DNA from: a virus
Lineage: Duplodnaviria; Caudoviricetes
Length of the DNA: 34,212 nucleotides
Strand: one strand, 5' to 3'
Virus record (IMG/VR): IMGVR_UViG_3300017716_000389
Span: 1-34,212 of that record
Shown: one piece after another, positions 3,689 through 16,545 of the stretch
Layout: every line of letters begins with the position of its first letter
Position numbering within the stretch: position 1 is the stretch's first letter
Made by a program: the position numbers and the translations under genes
Notes under the pieces: generated by a model
Databases searched by the model: none
Told to the model about the DNA's origin: nothing
The model's input: the letters and a program-made list of their open reading frames with translations, nothing else

Positions 3689-3816
3689 AACCAAATCAAT
3701 CGCAATCAAAGCAAAAACAGATTGCCGACAAAATAAAACAAGCTGCGGACAAGCGAGTTAAAAAGCCAATGCAGGCAAATGGCATGAAACAAAAAAAGGT
3801 GATTTTCCATGACTAA
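3685..3816 (+). CDS. Small basic hypothetical protein (43 aa), not in ORF track
   Basis: MKPNQSQSKQKQIADKIKQAADKRVKKPMQANGMKQKKVIFHD; ATGA overlap with portal stop and overlaps protease start. Confidence 0.55.
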   Translation: MKPNQSQSKQKQIADKIKQAADKRVKKPMQANGMKQKKVIFHD

Positions 3817-4606
3817 AAATGTCACATTTATTTTTGAATCCCAAGTTGCGCTTGGCATATCTGCCGATGAATCAATGGATTCAATGGGCAAGATTGAAGC
3901 AATGCTTACCACTTGGGGTGCGCGAGAAGGTGCAGACGGTCGCAAGTTTAACTATCAGCCTGAAGCATTTAAACAGTGGGCAAAAGAATTTGCTGCAATG
4001 GGTAAACCACTGCCAATGTATTTCCAACATAACGATCAATCAATGCCTGTTGGTCAATGGGATGAGTTTGAATTTACCGATGACGGTATGATTGGCAAAG
4101 GCAATATCTTTGTTAATACAAGCGCAGGAAAAGATTTATACACGATCATGAAAGAATCGCCAATGATGGTTGGTGGTGTTTCTGTTGGCGCATATGCAGA
4201 CGAATATGAAATGGTAGATGCTGAAGGTAATATGCTTCAAGCAGGCATTGATGCCGATGAAGATGGTTATTTCAGCATTACTAAAGGTGGATTGGCTGAA
4301 GTGTCAATCGTCATGAACCCAAACAACCCGATGGCAAATATTAGCAAGCTAGAATATTTCCGCGAAGATGGTTCATTTAATTTAAAAGTATTTGAGAAAG
4401 CTCTGCGCGAAGCGGGGATTTCGAAAAAAGATGCGACTATTGCCGCGTCTATTTTTGGCAAGGCAACCGCAAAACGTGATGTTGAAACGGTTAATGTCGA
4501 ACCGACTACCGAAATGCGCGATGCTGAATCGGATGCGGCAAAAGAGTTTTTAGAGTATCTTGAACAAAGAGATTTGCTCAAGGCTTTAGAAACACGCTTA
4601 TCTTAA
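3809..4606 (+). CDS. Prohead maturation protease (HK97/S78 type)
   Basis: PMYFQHN (His), GGVSVG (Ser), LAEVSIVMNPNNPMA; C-terminal FEKALREAGISK. Confidence 0.92.
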   Translation: MTKNVTFIFESQVALGISADESMDSMGKIEAMLTTWGAREGADGRKFNYQPEAFKQWAKEFAAMGKPLPMYFQHNDQSMPVGQWDEFEFTDDGMIGKGNIFVNTSAGKDLYTIMKESPMMVGGVSVGAYADEYEMVDAEGNMLQAGIDADEDGYFSITKGGLAEVSIVMNPNNPMANISKLEYFREDGSFNLKVFEKALREAGISKKDATIAASIFGKATAKRDVETVNVEPTTEMRDAESDAAKEFLEYLEQRDLLKALETRLS

Positions 4607-4624: not shown

Positions 4625-5980
4625 ATGTTAGATAAAATCACTGAAAAGCTAGATTCAATTGAATCTAAAGTTAAAGCAGAAACCGAAGCAATGGTTACTG
4701 AAAAAATCGCTGAAGCAACTGCACAAGTTGAAGCTGCTAAAGCAGAGTTCGCTGAAAAAGTTTCCGCACTAGAAGCAAAGGTTTCCCAAGTTGGTACGCC
4801 TTCAATCATTCGTGCAAATGCAGGCGTAATGGTTGACGTAAATCGTAAAGTTGCAGAACAACTTTCCGCATTTTACAAATCTAATGCTCGCATGGAAAAA
4901 GAAGTTAAGTTGTTTGAAGATGCTGCACAGTATGATGCTTTCCAAAAAGAAGCATCTGCACTGACAGGCGGCGGTAACAATCAAGGTGGTCGTACTGCTT
5001 ATGACCCTGTATTCGCACCACTGCGTTTGGCTAACCCAATGCGCGGCGTATCACGCGAAGTTGCAACCGATGGTTCTTCATATCAATTTCGTAGCAAAAT
5101 TGGCAACAGTGGCGCGGCATGGGGGTACTCTATTCAAAACAATGGTGCAGCTACAACCGAAGACACAACCATATGGCAATTAGTGCTGCAAGATTTGAAC
5201 GTACAGTTCCCAATTCGTACCGCAGCATTGGATGATATTGATGGTTTAGAAGCTAATGTTGTTTCAGATATGCTTGTTGAGTTTTCACAATCACAGGCAC
5301 TTTCAATGATCCAGAATAATGATCAGGCTGCACAATCTGTTTCTAATCCTTATGGTGGCACAAATGGTTTACGTGGACTTGATAGTTATGCGGGTGCGGC
5401 AGCTACTTATGCAGGCGGTTCAGTTACTACTGCTGCCTTTGGTACTTCTGGCACTGGCTCTAGTAGTGGTTTGCATTCGCTTGCTACTTATGACCAACTC
5501 ACTACCAACGCTAACACTGTCGGCGCGGCGAACATTACTTACAAAGACGTTATAAATTTTGTATATTCACTGCCACAGGAATATTGGACACCAACAACCA
5601 AGTTTGTAATTAATCCAGTATTGCTGCAACAGATTCGCGGTTTAACTGACGATCAAAAACGCCCAATCTATGTTGATGGCTTGGCTCGCAATGACGGTAT
5701 TGTTGGTACATTGCTTGGCTTTGATGTTGTTGTTAATAAGTATCTTGACACACCATCACAATTAACAACTGGCGCGGCAGGTACAAACAGTTTATATCCA
5801 ATGTATTTTGCTGATTGGTCACGTTTCCACACTATCGTAGATCGTTTAAGCATGGTTCTGCGTAGATATGACCAGACCCTTCCCGGTTTTATAACTTTCT
5901 TTGGCGAAACTCGTCTAGCATCCAGTGTAGTTAACCCTTTTTCGGGTGTACGTTATCGTTCAACTGGCACATCAACCTAA
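4625..5980 (+). CDS. Major capsid protein 1, HK97 fold with N-terminal coiled-coil scaffold (delta) domain
   Basis: ~105-aa E/K/A-rich helical N-terminus; FVINP..LQQIRGLTD, GTLLGFDVV, FADWSRF..IVDR motifs; AGGA RBS; follows protease. Confidence 0.93.
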   Translation: MLDKITEKLDSIESKVKAETEAMVTEKIAEATAQVEAAKAEFAEKVSALEAKVSQVGTPSIIRANAGVMVDVNRKVAEQLSAFYKSNARMEKEVKLFEDAAQYDAFQKEASALTGGGNNQGGRTAYDPVFAPLRLANPMRGVSREVATDGSSYQFRSKIGNSGAAWGYSIQNNGAATTEDTTIWQLVLQDLNVQFPIRTAALDDIDGLEANVVSDMLVEFSQSQALSMIQNNDQAAQSVSNPYGGTNGLRGLDSYAGAAATYAGGSVTTAAFGTSGTGSSSGLHSLATYDQLTTNANTVGAANITYKDVINFVYSLPQEYWTPTTKFVINPVLLQQIRGLTDDQKRPIYVDGLARNDGIVGTLLGFDVVVNKYLDTPSQLTTGAAGTNSLYPMYFADWSRFHTIVDRLSMVLRRYDQTLPGFITFFGETRLASSVVNPFSGVRYRSTGTST

Positions 5981-5990
5981 CTTTTGGTTG

Positions 5991-6023
5991 CCCCTATCAG
6001 AATGTACTGGTAGGGGTTTTTTT
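5991..6023 (+). terminator. Rho-independent terminator between the two capsid genes
   Basis: CCCCTATCAG-aatgta-CTGGTAGGGG stem (one G-U) followed by TTTTTTT. Confidence 0.85.
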
Positions 6024-6040
6024 GTTTAGGAATGGAAAAT

Positions 6041-7078
6041 ATGAAAGCCAACGAAAAAATCCTTTCAGGTATTAAACAGACGCTAGAAACTGGCGATAAG
6101 ATCACCATTGACTTGCGCGAAGCATCTGCGCTTACTGGAAGCGGTAACAATGTTGGTGGTCGTACTTTATTTGATGATGCTTTTGCTGCAATGCGATTTG
6201 CAAATCCAATTCGTCAAAAAGCAAGAATAGTAAAAAGAGCGGGTCAAAGTGCTATTCAATTTGTAGCTAAAACTGGTAACGCAGCTAATCAAACAAATCC
6301 GTTTGGATACACGTTTACCGCAGATAGCGGAACGCCAAACACAAACACAACAATCTGGCAATTGCCAACGCGAGTTATTACCGCACAACTTCCAGTTCGT
6401 AGCGCGGTCTTGTCGGATGTAAACTATTTAGATGAAACATTAGTTGCTGATTTAATGGCTGAATTTGGTGCTATTGAAGCGCAGTCAATGATTATCAATA
6501 ATGACCAAGCAGGTTCAACAACCACAAGCACAGGCGGCACAAACGGTTTGCGCGGTTTAAATATGTACACTAGTGCGGCTTCTTCTGCTTATGGCACAAG
6601 CGGCACAGCAATCACTAATGGTATTCACAGCATTGCAACTTACACTCAAGCGGCGGCGGCAGTTTCTTATTCTGACATTACAGATTTAACTCGTTTATTT
6701 CCTGCACAATATTGGAACACGCCAAGCACCGCATGGATGATGCACCCACAAACTATTCATGAATTGCGAAATTTAACTGCTACTGGCGGTAATCTTACAA
6801 GGCAATTTACTGAAAATGGTGATGCTTTTGGTGGCGCAGTAACTCATATTTTTGGATTCCCTGTAATACCAAATCCATACATGGAAACAACTGGTGCAGG
6901 TAAATTTAATATTTACTTAGCGTCATGGGAAAATTTTGTAACGATTGCTGACGTTGAAGAAATGACGATACAAGCATTTGAACAAACTGCGCCCGGTTTT
7001 ATTACACTGTATGCAGAACGCCGTTTAGCAAGCACAGTTCGTGACCCGTTTGCAGGTATTCGCTTAGTAGGTGTTTAA
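6041..7078 (+). CDS. Capsid protein 2 (HK97-fold paralogue with short propeptide)
   Basis: Collinear with capsid 1 from EASALTG onward (NND, GGTNGLRGL, HS.ATY.Q, WMMHP, IFGFPV, QT.PGFIT); start 6041 or 6032. Confidence 0.9.
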   Translation: MKANEKILSGIKQTLETGDKITIDLREASALTGSGNNVGGRTLFDDAFAAMRFANPIRQKARIVKRAGQSAIQFVAKTGNAANQTNPFGYTFTADSGTPNTNTTIWQLPTRVITAQLPVRSAVLSDVNYLDETLVADLMAEFGAIEAQSMIINNDQAGSTTTSTGGTNGLRGLNMYTSAASSAYGTSGTAITNGIHSIATYTQAAAAVSYSDITDLTRLFPAQYWNTPSTAWMMHPQTIHELRNLTATGGNLTRQFTENGDAFGGAVTHIFGFPVIPNPYMETTGAGKFNIYLASWENFVTIADVEEMTIQAFEQTAPGFITLYAERRLASTVRDPFAGIRLVGV

Positions 7079-7080
7079 TT

Positions 7081-7740
7081 ATGCCAGTTCAAGAAACAGG
7101 TTTAGGATTTGTTCAACTTGCGCCTACTCGCAATCCGTTCAATTATGATTGGTTTGAACAGACCAACCGTAATATTGCGACTGCGTGGTTAACGCTTACT
7201 GAAATTAGAAATCAATTAAACCTGTATTCTGACACTAGCCAAGACACATATTTAACTGCATTGGAATTAGCAATACGAATGGCGATTGAAGATTATTTAG
7301 GTCTTGCAATTACTAGCGTTCAATACAAAGTTTATTATGGTGCATCTGCTTTATATGGCTCACCACTGTCACTTGATTTGCCTGAAACATCACAAGGCGG
7401 CGTGACAATTAATTCAGTTGCTTATTACAACGATGCAACGCCAACAGTATTAACTACGGTAAACCAAGCTAATTATTATTATGACCCTACAGGGCAAAAG
7501 ATAATTGTTACAGATTTGCCGACATCAATTAATCCGCAAATGACTTCACCTGTCATTGCTACTTATACGCTTGCGGCATCATCATTAGCAACTTACCCAG
7601 TTATAAAACAAGCGGGTTTATTGTGGTTTACGCATTTATACAATAACCGTTCCGCAGTTGGTGATACGGTTGGGCAATTGGCACAGATACCATTAGGTGT
7701 GGATACATTGCTTAGACCATATAAACCATTGGTGATGTGA
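7081..7740 (+). CDS. Head-tail connector/adaptor (HK97 gp6/SPP1 gp15-like)
   Basis: LTLTEIRNQL..DTYL..L; IKQAGLLWFTHLYNNR..V; IPLGVDTLLRPYK. Confidence 0.88.
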   Translation: MPVQETGLGFVQLAPTRNPFNYDWFEQTNRNIATAWLTLTEIRNQLNLYSDTSQDTYLTALELAIRMAIEDYLGLAITSVQYKVYYGASALYGSPLSLDLPETSQGGVTINSVAYYNDATPTVLTTVNQANYYYDPTGQKIIVTDLPTSINPQMTSPVIATYTLAASSLATYPVIKQAGLLWFTHLYNNRSAVGDTVGQLAQIPLGVDTLLRPYKPLVM

Positions 7741-8531: not shown

Positions 8532-9026
8532 ATGGCATTACCAAATAGAGTTCTTCCCGGATTTGCTGCGATACTTTACGCACAACCTTCGGCAACCCCT
8601 ACTGCATTAACGCTTGCTCAATTATCGACATTAGCTAACGTAGCTGCAATTGCTATTAGCGGCAATCAATTACCAGTTGAATCTATTCCTGCATTCGGAC
8701 AGGATGACGGTGTTGTAAATTACGCAGTTGCAGGTTCGCGTCAATCTGACAAGATACCAGTGCAATCAGCACCAACATCTTTATCCGTTACTGCCGCATG
8801 GAATCCTTCTGATTCAATGTTGTTATTAATGCGTGGCGATGCTTATAGTGGAATTGTAGATCGCACATTTGTTATTGCTGCGGTAGATGGCGCAAACATT
8901 GTTTATTATGCATTCAATGGTCGTGTTTCTGAATTCCAAATACAAAGTGATCCCAGTGCTGAAGCTAAGTGCGTTTTCACAATTCATCCTCGCGGCAACC
9001 AATACGGTTGGTCAAATAACGTATAA
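8532..9026 (+). CDS. Tail tube (major tail) protein, copy 1
   Basis: Position; IPAFG...V.Y, SLSVTAAWNP, YAFNGRVSEFQ beta-sandwich pattern; GAGGA RBS. Confidence 0.85.
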   Translation: MALPNRVLPGFAAILYAQPSATPTALTLAQLSTLANVAAIAISGNQLPVESIPAFGQDDGVVNYAVAGSRQSDKIPVQSAPTSLSVTAAWNPSDSMLLLMRGDAYSGIVDRTFVIAAVDGANIVYYAFNGRVSEFQIQSDPSAEAKCVFTIHPRGNQYGWSNNV

Positions 9027-9038
9027 AGGAAATTTATC

Positions 9039-9557
9039 ATGGCTATACCTAATAGAGTTCTACCCGGATTTGCTGCTTCGTTATTTATGCAAACAGGCGC
9101 AACCCCAACAACATTAACAACTGCAAATTTATCTGTATGGTCTGCACAAGTTGCAACTATTGTTGGCACTAGCGCAGGCGGCACAGGCGCGGCGGGTACA
9201 TTAGTTCCTGTTGAAAGCATACCCGCATTCGGACAGGATGATGGCGTAGTTAACTATTCGGTCGCGGGTTCACGCCAATCCGATAAGATTCCAGTACAGT
9301 CTGCACCAACTTCTTTGTCGGTAACGGCTGCGTGGAATCCTTCTGATGCTGCATTGTTGCTGATTCGTGGTGATGCTTATAGCGGCATTGTTGATCGCAC
9401 TTTTGTAGTTGCTGCGGTGGATGGTGCAAACACAATTGCTTATGCTTTTAATGGTCGTGTTTCTGAATTTCAGATTCAATCTGATCCCGGCGCAGAAGCT
9501 AAATGTGTCTTTACGATACATCCGCGTGGCAACCAATACGGTTGGTCGAACAACTAA
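9039..9557 (+). CDS. Tail tube (major tail) protein, copy 2
   Basis: Paralogue of 8532-9026, 9 differences over the C-terminal 116 aa by hand alignment; AAGGA RBS. Confidence 0.85.
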   Translation: MAIPNRVLPGFAASLFMQTGATPTTLTTANLSVWSAQVATIVGTSAGGTGAAGTLVPVESIPAFGQDDGVVNYSVAGSRQSDKIPVQSAPTSLSVTAAWNPSDAALLLIRGDAYSGIVDRTFVVAAVDGANTIAYAFNGRVSEFQIQSDPGAEAKCVFTIHPRGNQYGWSNN

Positions 9558-9563
9558 AACAAT

Positions 9564-9583
9564 GCCCCTTCGGGGGCTTTTTT
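9564..9583 (+). terminator. Rho-independent terminator after tail tube genes
   Basis: GCCCC-TTCG-GGGGC followed by TTTTTT; cUUCGg tetraloop. Confidence 0.9.
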
Positions 9584-16098: not shown

Positions 16099-16545
16099 AT
16101 GATAAGACAAGCAAACAAATTTGACATACCAAAAATTATTGATATGTTAAAAAATTTTAGAAGTGTTGCGCCAATAGAAGTTTTAAGACAAGCAGACGAC
16201 CAAGAATATATAGAAAAACTTCTTACTGAAATTATTGTAGGTTCGGGATTTATTTTATTAGCGGAAAAAGATAGCACTGTTGTTGGCATGATTATTGGCG
16301 GCATAATTACTAATGTATGGAATCCAAAAGTTAAACAATGTAGTGAAATAGCGTATTGGGTAGAACCAGAATTTAGAGGTGGCACTATTGCACATAGACT
16401 TTTAAAGGCTTATTTTGCAGAGTGCGACAAGATGATGAAATCAGGCAAGATTCAAATGTACACAATGAGCAAAATGATTAGTTCGCCTGATTTAAATTAT
16501 AAAAAATTTGGTTTAAGCAAACTGGAAGAAACTTGGGTTAAATAA
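16099..16545 (+). CDS. GNAT-family acetyltransferase
   Basis: MIRQA..D start, WVEPEFRGGTIAHRLL (motif A), YKKFGL (motif B); AAGGA RBS. Confidence 0.85.
   Translation: MIRQANKFDIPKIIDMLKNFRSVAPIEVLRQADDQEYIEKLLTEIIVGSGFILLAEKDSTVVGMIIGGIITNVWNPKVKQCSEIAYWVEPEFRGGTIAHRLLKAYFAECDKMMKSGKIQMYTMSKMISSPDLNYKKFGLSKLEETWVK

Follow-up and report, generated by a model that had tools for sequence, protein, structure and literature searches.

Why should a siphophage carry two complete capsid genes side by side in one head operon? The question is raised by a 34,212-base virus record from IMG/VR (IMGVR_UViG_3300017716_000389; completeness 91%), the whole of which is called the window here. Its gene CP1 (positions 4625–5980) encodes an HK97-fold major capsid protein of 451 residues that is likely the hexon protein. 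It is followed at 6041–7078 by CP2, which encodes a 345-residue HK97-fold paralogue that is without the coiled coil and is likely the penton protein. A predicted hairpin with a run of T, resembling an intrinsic terminator, lies between them (5990–6023). These features, and the protease, adaptor and protein segments mapped below, are all on the + strand. The capsid pair is real, conserved and under selection, and CP1 and CP2 likely form a hexon/penton pair.

Two intact capsid genes of one fold

The identification of CP1 rests on profiles, an AlphaFold2 model and codon bias, and that of CP2 on BLASTP, profiles and an AlphaFold2 model. BLASTP aligns the two proteins from K108 of CP1 and R26 of CP2 through the C-terminus, with 138/344 identities (40%; E 2e-74). 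Both exceed the curated cut-offs of PF05065 (24.2 bits) and TIGR01554 (27.5 bits), CP1 scoring 84.3 and 90.8 bits and CP2 75.8 and 68 bits, respectively. AlphaFold2 was applied to CP2 and to CP1 from residue 109 onwards; each model has a mean predicted local distance difference test (pLDDT) score of 88, and the N-arm, E-loop, spine helix, P-domain and A-domain of the HK97 fold are found in both models and by fold searches. The best fold match of both models is the RcGTA capsid (E 2e-19 and 5e-19); the same solved capsids top both lists, and these searches do not separate hexon from penton. A block GGTNGLRGL..Y..GTSGT..G.HS.ATY is common to the two proteins. The initial annotation of this DNA had described two intact HK97-fold genes split by a terminator-like hairpin, aligned from a shared motif to the C-terminus and sharing this insertion block, and all three observations are borne out. 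An alternative in-frame ATG at 6032 would make CP2 348 residues long; the start at 6041 is likelier because the ATG at 6032 abuts the AGGA at 6028–6031. A frameshift product of the T7 gp10B type can be ruled out, as CP2 is a gene in its own right, which has its own start and encodes a complete second fold.

Distribution, retention and selection

IMG/VR scans gave 240 stretches resembling CP2 and 565 resembling CP1; the 80 best of either kind were kept, and further scans were started from distant members. Among the 322 rows examined, CP1 is followed by CP2 in 304 and a split CP1 precedes CP2 in one (L267); the remaining 17 show a single gene because the contig ends. The CP1-anchored rows number 168 (80 + 80 + 8 of 9 from three scans, not deduplicated), and CP2 follows in 157 of these, being complete in 139 and running off the contig end in 18, with none split. 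The other 11 stop inside CP1 or at most 112 nucleotides past its stop codon. CP2 is thus lost in none of the 157 CP1-anchored rows with room for it, and the frequent loss or pseudogenisation that would have told against the initial annotation is not observed. One shortened CP1 (L405), on a short contig, occurs among the 58 CP2-anchored metagenome rows.

When 1.84 billion representatives were searched with a profile, deeper forms of both the long and the short kind were recovered. In three deep long/short pairs the longest contigs are equal in length (P0139/P0144, 47,074; P0137/P0135, 3,708; P0398/P0127, 10,230), which suggests that the members of each pair likely share contigs. No IMG/VR locus was obtained for the deep relatives P0139 and P0166. 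Two further deep relatives, P0133 and P0171, have a delta domain together with short loops like those of CP2, and may represent an ancestral type with a single gene.

A quick tree of 73 rows keeps the 20 CP1 rows together to one side of a branch, and likewise the 20 CP2 rows; the CP2 clade stands on a long stem with a support of 100, giving the two deep clades that had been anticipated. Median ratios of nonsynonymous to synonymous substitution rates (dN/dS), taken over pairs that share ancestry, are 0.10 for CP2 (419 pairs), 0.12 for CP1 (537 pairs), 0.15 for the protease and 0.10 for the adaptor; both capsid genes are under purifying selection. Over the long term CP2 has diverged further than CP1, with a median identity of 59% as against 70%. 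The family of lake phages with this capsid pair is widespread, and the pair is old and has been kept. Conservation, the two clades, the lack of loss and the dN/dS values rule out a chance or recent duplication, as well as a decaying copy.

Leader, shared motif and maturation

Upstream of its PF05065 match, CP1 carries an N-terminal extension (residues 1–108; 4625–4948) that is read as a delta domain, that is, a built-in scaffold; in the family profile it aligns with the N-terminal part of the RcGTA and HK97 precursors. CP2 has a leader of 26 residues (6041–6118) as against the 108 of CP1, with a helix predicted at residues 3–17 in the AlphaFold2 model. In the alignment this leader falls opposite the end of the delta region, both in CP1 and in the outgroup P0133, and it is likely the distal stump of a delta domain whose coiled coil was lost.

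Both proteins then enter a shared motif with the conserved core E-A-S-x-(L/I)-T-x-x-G. In CP1 it begins at E109 (EASALTG...GGR; 4949–4993), the predicted mature start, as judged from the conservation of the E and from the alignment to the point where the solved RcGTA chain begins. Of 212 CP1 sequences 199 have the E, as do 222 of 224 CP2 sequences. The preceding K or R had been taken as a conserved part of the motif; it is found in just 155 of the 212 and 156 of the 224 sequences, which rules it out. In the profile alignment, EASAL stands opposite EGKAL of RcGTA. The solved RcGTA chain comprises 297 of 386 residues and therefore starts near EGKAL. By this comparison the EAS motif is likely the mature N-terminus of both proteins, and the cut would fall either behind the E or two residues further, at the bond equivalent to that in RcGTA. 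The earlier proposal that the motif is the protease cleavage site is accordingly plausible in its position, with the K/R left out of it. A second EAS-type site, which would have confirmed the specificity of the protease, was sought in the portal, protease, adaptor and tail-tube proteins and occurs in none of the five sets.

Where CP1 and CP2 differ

The identity between CP1 and CP2 is uneven along the fold. It reaches 0.59 in the N-arm and 0.54 in the P-loop block, lies at 0.41–0.45 across the spine, the E-loop and the strands of the P-domain, and drops to 0.30 in the A-domain. Three loops of 8–10 residues each are found in CP1 only. The alignments place a 9-residue loop in the P-domain insertion (about residues 259–268; approximately 5399–5428) and two loops in the A-domain (about residues 293–301, approximately 5501–5527; and about residues 379–387, approximately 5759–5785), the last of which is also seen in the model. 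CP1 further extends 4–6 residues beyond CP2 at the C-terminus. The loops and the extension were gained by CP1, since the outgroups P0133 and P0171 are without them. Counted by column, the A-domain has 23 CP1-only and 2 CP2-only positions, and it is predicted to be smaller in CP2 than in CP1, as it is in the vertex proteins of phages Jabs and Nocturne116.

The most CP2-specific stretch is the A-domain segment at residues 244–272 (6770–6856), which was picked after the alignment had been inspected. There the outgroup P0133 shares 52% identity with CP1 as against 21% with CP2, and by this comparison CP2 is the derived one. The A-domain holds more than its share of fixed differences (10 of 25 conserved columns vs 14 of 79; Fisher p 0.03), which is modest evidence because the outgroups are distant there too. 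Of the 34 shared columns of the N-arm none is missing from CP2, and in the E-loop CP2 exceeds CP1 by 3 columns. Shared inter-capsomer contacts combined with separate A-domains are the pattern that two kinds of homo-capsomer would predict.

Spacer hairpin and expression level

The hairpin between the genes (5990–6017) has 11 pairs, 6 of them G-C, and is followed by seven T at 6017–6023. Its prediction rests on a hairpin scan, shuffled sequences and the conserved structure in relatives. Taken alone, the window hairpin is modest (z -2.55; 6 of 200 shuffles fold equally well), and a terminator scan of the window gives 14 such sites vs 12.0 in shuffles. Across 176 distinct spacers of at least 45 nucleotides, the median minimum free energy is -20 kcal/mol and the median z is -2.8, with 147 below -2, while the stem letters differ among lineages. 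This conservation of structure makes the spacer hairpin more than chance. The terminator had been called strong at the outset; the hairpin and its T run are real and conserved, and in the window by itself the hairpin is modest. A perfect G-C-rich stem is followed by at least five T in 135 of 178 distinct spacers and by four T in 21. Two or three T follow it in 11, and a further 11 are uncalled under the strict rule, mostly because of bulged stems. One lineage (spacers of L101, L248–L256, L262, L263 and L276) keeps the G-C hairpin with two or three T, and termination may be weaker there.

The protease-CP1 and CP2-adaptor gaps are below 20 nucleotides, the latter being -1 to 14 nucleotides in 274 loci. 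CP2 therefore belongs to the post-terminator segment, separated from CP1 by the hairpin-bearing spacer. Terminators 3′ of the major capsid gene are common in phages. Codon bias was measured as the use of C-ending codons, a rough marker of high expression. Its medians are 0.52 for CP1, 0.33 for CP2, 0.34 for the protease and 0.38 for the adaptor. CP1 exceeds CP2 in 159 of 173 loci, and CP2, which resembles the protease and adaptor, has by this measure the codon bias of a low-copy gene. Contigs from all four freshwater RNA runs (4/4) hold pieces of CP1 and CP2, although such contigs cannot rank genes or prove transcription, and no piece bridging the hairpin is among the matches listed. The hairpin supports the suggestion that CP2 is a minor component, without giving a ratio. 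The initial annotation had gone further and derived a minor CP2, at 55 to 360 copies, from terminator read-through. The conserved hairpin and the lower codon bias of CP2 favour the first part. The ratio does not follow, as the tail genes are gated by the same hairpin.

Whole-gene swaps and added domains

Both whole-gene swaps of CP2 and insertions in it are new observations. The swap test used 173 distinct four-gene loci and those pairs of loci whose other three genes are at least 88% identical. CP2 stands at between-lineage distance in 16 of 302 such pairs (3 of 26 groups), as against none for the protease (0/276), CP1 (0/252) or the adaptor (0/290). CP2 alleles as low as 64% identical sit beside near-identical CP1, protease and adaptor genes. 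Between the window and L087, DNA identity is 79–97% over CP1, 59–71% over most of CP2 and 96–99% over the adaptor.

In 6 of 305 loci (L297, L312, L313, L314, L317 and L318), a 100-residue domain of unknown function (phrog_2859; for example L312:4692-4988) is fused in frame, 5′ of the CP2 leader; such a domain would lie inside the procapsid and then be cut off. An insert of about 70 residues in the CP2 E-loop, matching the tail-fibre family phrog_38233 (E 1e-9), is present in 10 of the 58 metagenome rows, a share that is no frequency, as the query was chosen for its insert. CP1 and the hairpin are seen upstream in 8 of these 10, and the position of the domain fits the outer surface. Four deeper proteins of the CP2 clade have a beta-rich insert in the P-loop. 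Beta-rich CP2 inserts are recorded for L398:3983-5251 (P0126), P0134, P0143, P0144 and P0145, either in the E-loop (tail-fibre-like) or in the P-loop (no named family). None of 212 CP1 proteins exceeds 462 residues, and insertions were seen in CP2 only. It is possible, if somewhat doubtful, that CP2 is a plug-in vertex module, that is, a self-contained penton exchanged as a unit and used as a platform, which would place tail-fibre-like adhesin domains at the head corners in some lineages and carry an N-terminal cargo domain into the head, there to be cut free, in others.

Proposed division of labour and alternative readings

Gene order, folds, conservation, two clades and purifying selection are shown for CP1 and CP2. 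Their gene anatomy matches that of solved hexon/penton pairs. CP1 probably builds the hexons and CP2 the eleven pentameric vertices of the same head. Genomes of 34–39 kb suggest a head with triangulation number T=7, and in that case there would be 360 copies of CP1 and 55 of CP2. Many late transcripts would stop at the hairpin after CP1, so that production of CP2 would be reduced to that of the neck genes. Shell assembly would be driven by CP1, which has the full delta domain. CP2, without the coiled coil, would join by way of its 26-residue stump and of the N-arm and P-domain surfaces that the two proteins share, and the S78 protease would trim both at the EAS motif. After the duplication, CP1 would have gained A-domain loops and a C-terminal extension suited to a six-fold centre, and CP2 would have remodelled another A-domain segment for a five-fold centre, until each came to need the other. 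With the A-domains specialised in turn, neither gene would be lost. CP2 could be replaced whole and could bear extra domains, because a homo-pentamer would bring its own subunit contacts along.

Several observations weigh against this division. CP2 retains the full N-arm and E-loop, which are lost or shortened in the Nocturne116 vertex protein, and CP1 and CP2 are closer (40%) than the solved hexon/penton pairs (about 20–24%). A-domains diverge fast anyway, the outgroups being just 0.26–0.37 identical there. The hairpin lies upstream of all neck and tail genes, the tail tube included. Tail-tube genes are needed in many copies, so read-through cannot be small, and a 55:360 ratio is unreadable from the hairpin. 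In 11 of the 178 spacers just two or three T stand behind it, the codon difference is small in the window itself (0.33 vs 0.27), and CP2 is split in L454, a contig of 1 kb, which is one of the 58 metagenome rows anchored on CP2. A randomly mixed minor subunit would be equally compatible with insertions at the surface and with low expression. CP2 would then be a low-copy subunit built at random into hexons and pentons beside CP1, displaying domains or tuning stability, for which T7 gp10B, a minor capsid form made by frameshift from the major capsid gene, is a model. Such mixing, which we regard as unlikely, would be eased by the 40% identity and by the full N-arm and E-loop that keep CP2 compatible with CP1, and it would account for the low-expression slot, the codon bias, and the surface and N-terminal insertions of CP2. 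Mixed HK97-fold shells are known from a two-component Streptomyces encapsulin of the family 2B type, in which two paralogues mix irregularly, with variable composition and tiling (PMC11071501). Alleles only 64% identical beside a near-identical CP1 are nonetheless harder to explain if each CP2 subunit has to fit CP1 on either side. The most diverged part is moreover the A-domain, which makes the intra-capsomer contacts, and an optional subunit would not be expected to persist in all 157 informative rows.

Another fixed place or assembly role, in the capsomers around the portal, in a nucleating capsomer or as a determinant of curvature that would set head size or shape, is improbable. CP2 does lie beside the head-tail adaptor in every locus with room. 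We know of no solved capsid paralogue of a portal ring, and no two genome-size classes turned up, although no search was aimed at such classes. The capsid homologue Ccm alters head size and shape (PMC8569155), and the authors of the Nocturne116 study speculate likewise for its vertex protein (PMC13595954). Ccm, however, acts as a penton, and this known case therefore falls under the hexon/penton reading. It is very improbable that CP2 works outside the mature virion, in the cell, as a decoy for capsid-sensing defences or in interference with satellites or rival phages. Whole-gene swapping and faster divergence (59% vs 70% for CP1) are typical of conflict genes, but dN/dS is about 0.1, the whole fold, leader and EAS motif are kept (214/225), the gene is fixed within the head operon, and a tail-fibre-like E-loop domain is sensible on a particle surface. 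The hexon/penton reading is thus retained. The initial annotation is supported in part, by the clades, the lack of loss, purifying selection and the low-expression codon bias, and gives way on the K/R motif and on a 55:360 ratio read from the terminator.

Genomic setting

The layout of the window is that of a lambdoid siphophage, with small and large terminase subunits, an HK97-type portal, an S78 prohead protease and the two capsid genes, followed 3′ by an adaptor, two tail-tube genes, the tape measure, the tail tip, and then lysis and replication genes. The prohead protease (Peptidase S78; 3809–4606) matches PF04586 above the cut-off, phrog_80, and TIGR01543 below its cut-off, and is presumed to trim both CP1 and CP2. 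The head-tail adaptor Ad1 (7081–7740; phrog_40) is directly 3′ of CP2 in the same post-terminator segment, and CP2 adjoins the adaptor in every locus with room.

The window's tail-tube genes (8532–9026 and 9039–9557) form a tandem pair, 78% identical, with a hairpin and T run behind it at 9564–9577. Among 200 loci with room after the last copy, 102 have two copies and 98 have one, as does Methylophilaceae phage P19250A; this duplication is younger than the capsid pair. Genes for a TET-associated glycosyltransferase (PF20691; 31314–32177) and a 2OG-Fe(II) oxygenase (PF13640; 20990–22099) possibly serve in DNA or virion modification. A GNAT acetyltransferase gene (16099–16545) lies among the tail-tip genes, just 5′ of the large tail protein. 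Outside the window, one CP1-CP2 pair (L161:5998-8425) is found inside a 229-kb contig of a Burkholderiaceae metagenome-assembled genome. It is possibly a prophage, which would extend the host range past Methylophilaceae.

Comparison with known systems

P19250A (KX815270), a cultured siphovirus of freshwater LD28 (10.1101/2020.04.27.064238), is the sole relative of the window among 50,697 deposited phages. Its gp5 (APC43890) is 63% identical to CP1 and its gp6 (APC43891) 52% identical to CP2. The two genes stand in the same order with a 77-nucleotide gap and are followed by the adaptor, as in the window, whereas P19250A has one tail-tube gene where the window has two. This cultured member thus carries the pair, with the second gene still annotated as “hypothetical protein”. 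Neither a structure nor a virion proteome turned up for P19250A in the literature searched. A description of two capsid genes in this phage family was not found in that literature, the scope of which left aside the original P19250A paper, subscription papers and supplements, and the accessible parts of 10.1101/2022.09.09.507160, PMC7150772 and 10.1101/2025.11.23.690004 hold nothing on dual capsid genes.

A division of homologous HK97-fold proteins between hexons and pentons has been solved for T4 gp23/gp24 (PMC9958956), SaPIbov5 Ccm (PMC8569155), Nocturne116 (PMC13595954) and Jabs (10.64898/2026.07.24.740622). Of the solved phage cases that turned up with two homologous capsid genes, all four divide the proteins between hexons and pentons. 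The T4 pair, the precedent first offered for this locus, holds as a solved pair, and with three more solved cases published the idea is less unusual than it was made to seem. In T4, the prohead protease removes 65 and 10 residues from the two proteins, the vertex protein cannot be dispensed with, and the mutations that bypass gp24 lie partly in the A-domain interface (PMC9958956). T4 differs in being a large prolate myovirus with a separate scaffold core and about 20% identity between gp23 and gp24. Ccm and the phi12 capsid protein are of the HK97 delta-domain type, with the shorter-delta homologue in pentamers and both proteins cleaved (PMC8569155). Ccm is satellite-encoded and redirects a helper phage, whereas CP1 and CP2 are both in one phage's own head operon. 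A satellite is without head and tail genes of its own; CP2 lies in a full terminase-portal-protease-capsid-neck-tail operon.

Nocturne116 is a small Lactococcus siphophage whose head has 50 hexamers plus 11 pentamers of a vertex protein (VP), an HK97-fold paralogue encoded adjacent and downstream, with no scaffold domain and a shorter A-domain tip loop (PMC13595954). Unlike the window's pair, it has a prolate head, isopeptide cross-links and 24% identity between its major capsid protein (MCP) and VP. In the VP the N-arm is almost gone and the E-loop is small. CP2 retains both, and the narrow c2-like vertex feature, with the N-arm nearly absent and the E-loop much shortened, is not seen in it. 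No close sequence link was found between the Nocturne116 and window pairs, which are likely separate duplications. Jabs, an icosahedral siphophage, encodes the hexon protein MCPh (594 residues; ORF72) beside the penton protein MCPp (257 residues; ORF73). As in the window, its penton axial domain is reduced and only the hexon protein has a C-terminal extension; its T=9 head, disulfide links and actinobacterial host set it apart (bioRxiv 10.64898/2026.07.24.740622). CP2 shares with dedicated vertex paralogues a separate HK97-fold homologue gene and a leader shorter than that of the major protein. The nearest solved structure of both CP1 and CP2 is the RcGTA major capsid protein (PDB 6tb9; Foldseek E ~1e-19), to which the CP2 model aligns with a VIA Z of 25.8 and a root-mean-square deviation of 4.0 over 278 residues; sequence identity is 17–18%. 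RcGTA differs in building both kinds of capsomer from a single protein, with its pentamers decorated by separate spike proteins (PMC7296036). CP1 and CP2 are likely a separate duplication, because the c2-like and satellite features fail and the nearest solved relative is this single RcGTA protein.

The swaps and insertions in CP2 would reveal what contacts are required of a vertex protein, and whether the corners of the head can act as exchangeable display sites. The hexon/penton split of one capsid protein is known from few solved phages, at about 20–24% identity where reported; the CP1/CP2 family likely adds an independent one at 40% identity, in which hundreds of natural pairs are available together with natural allele swaps.

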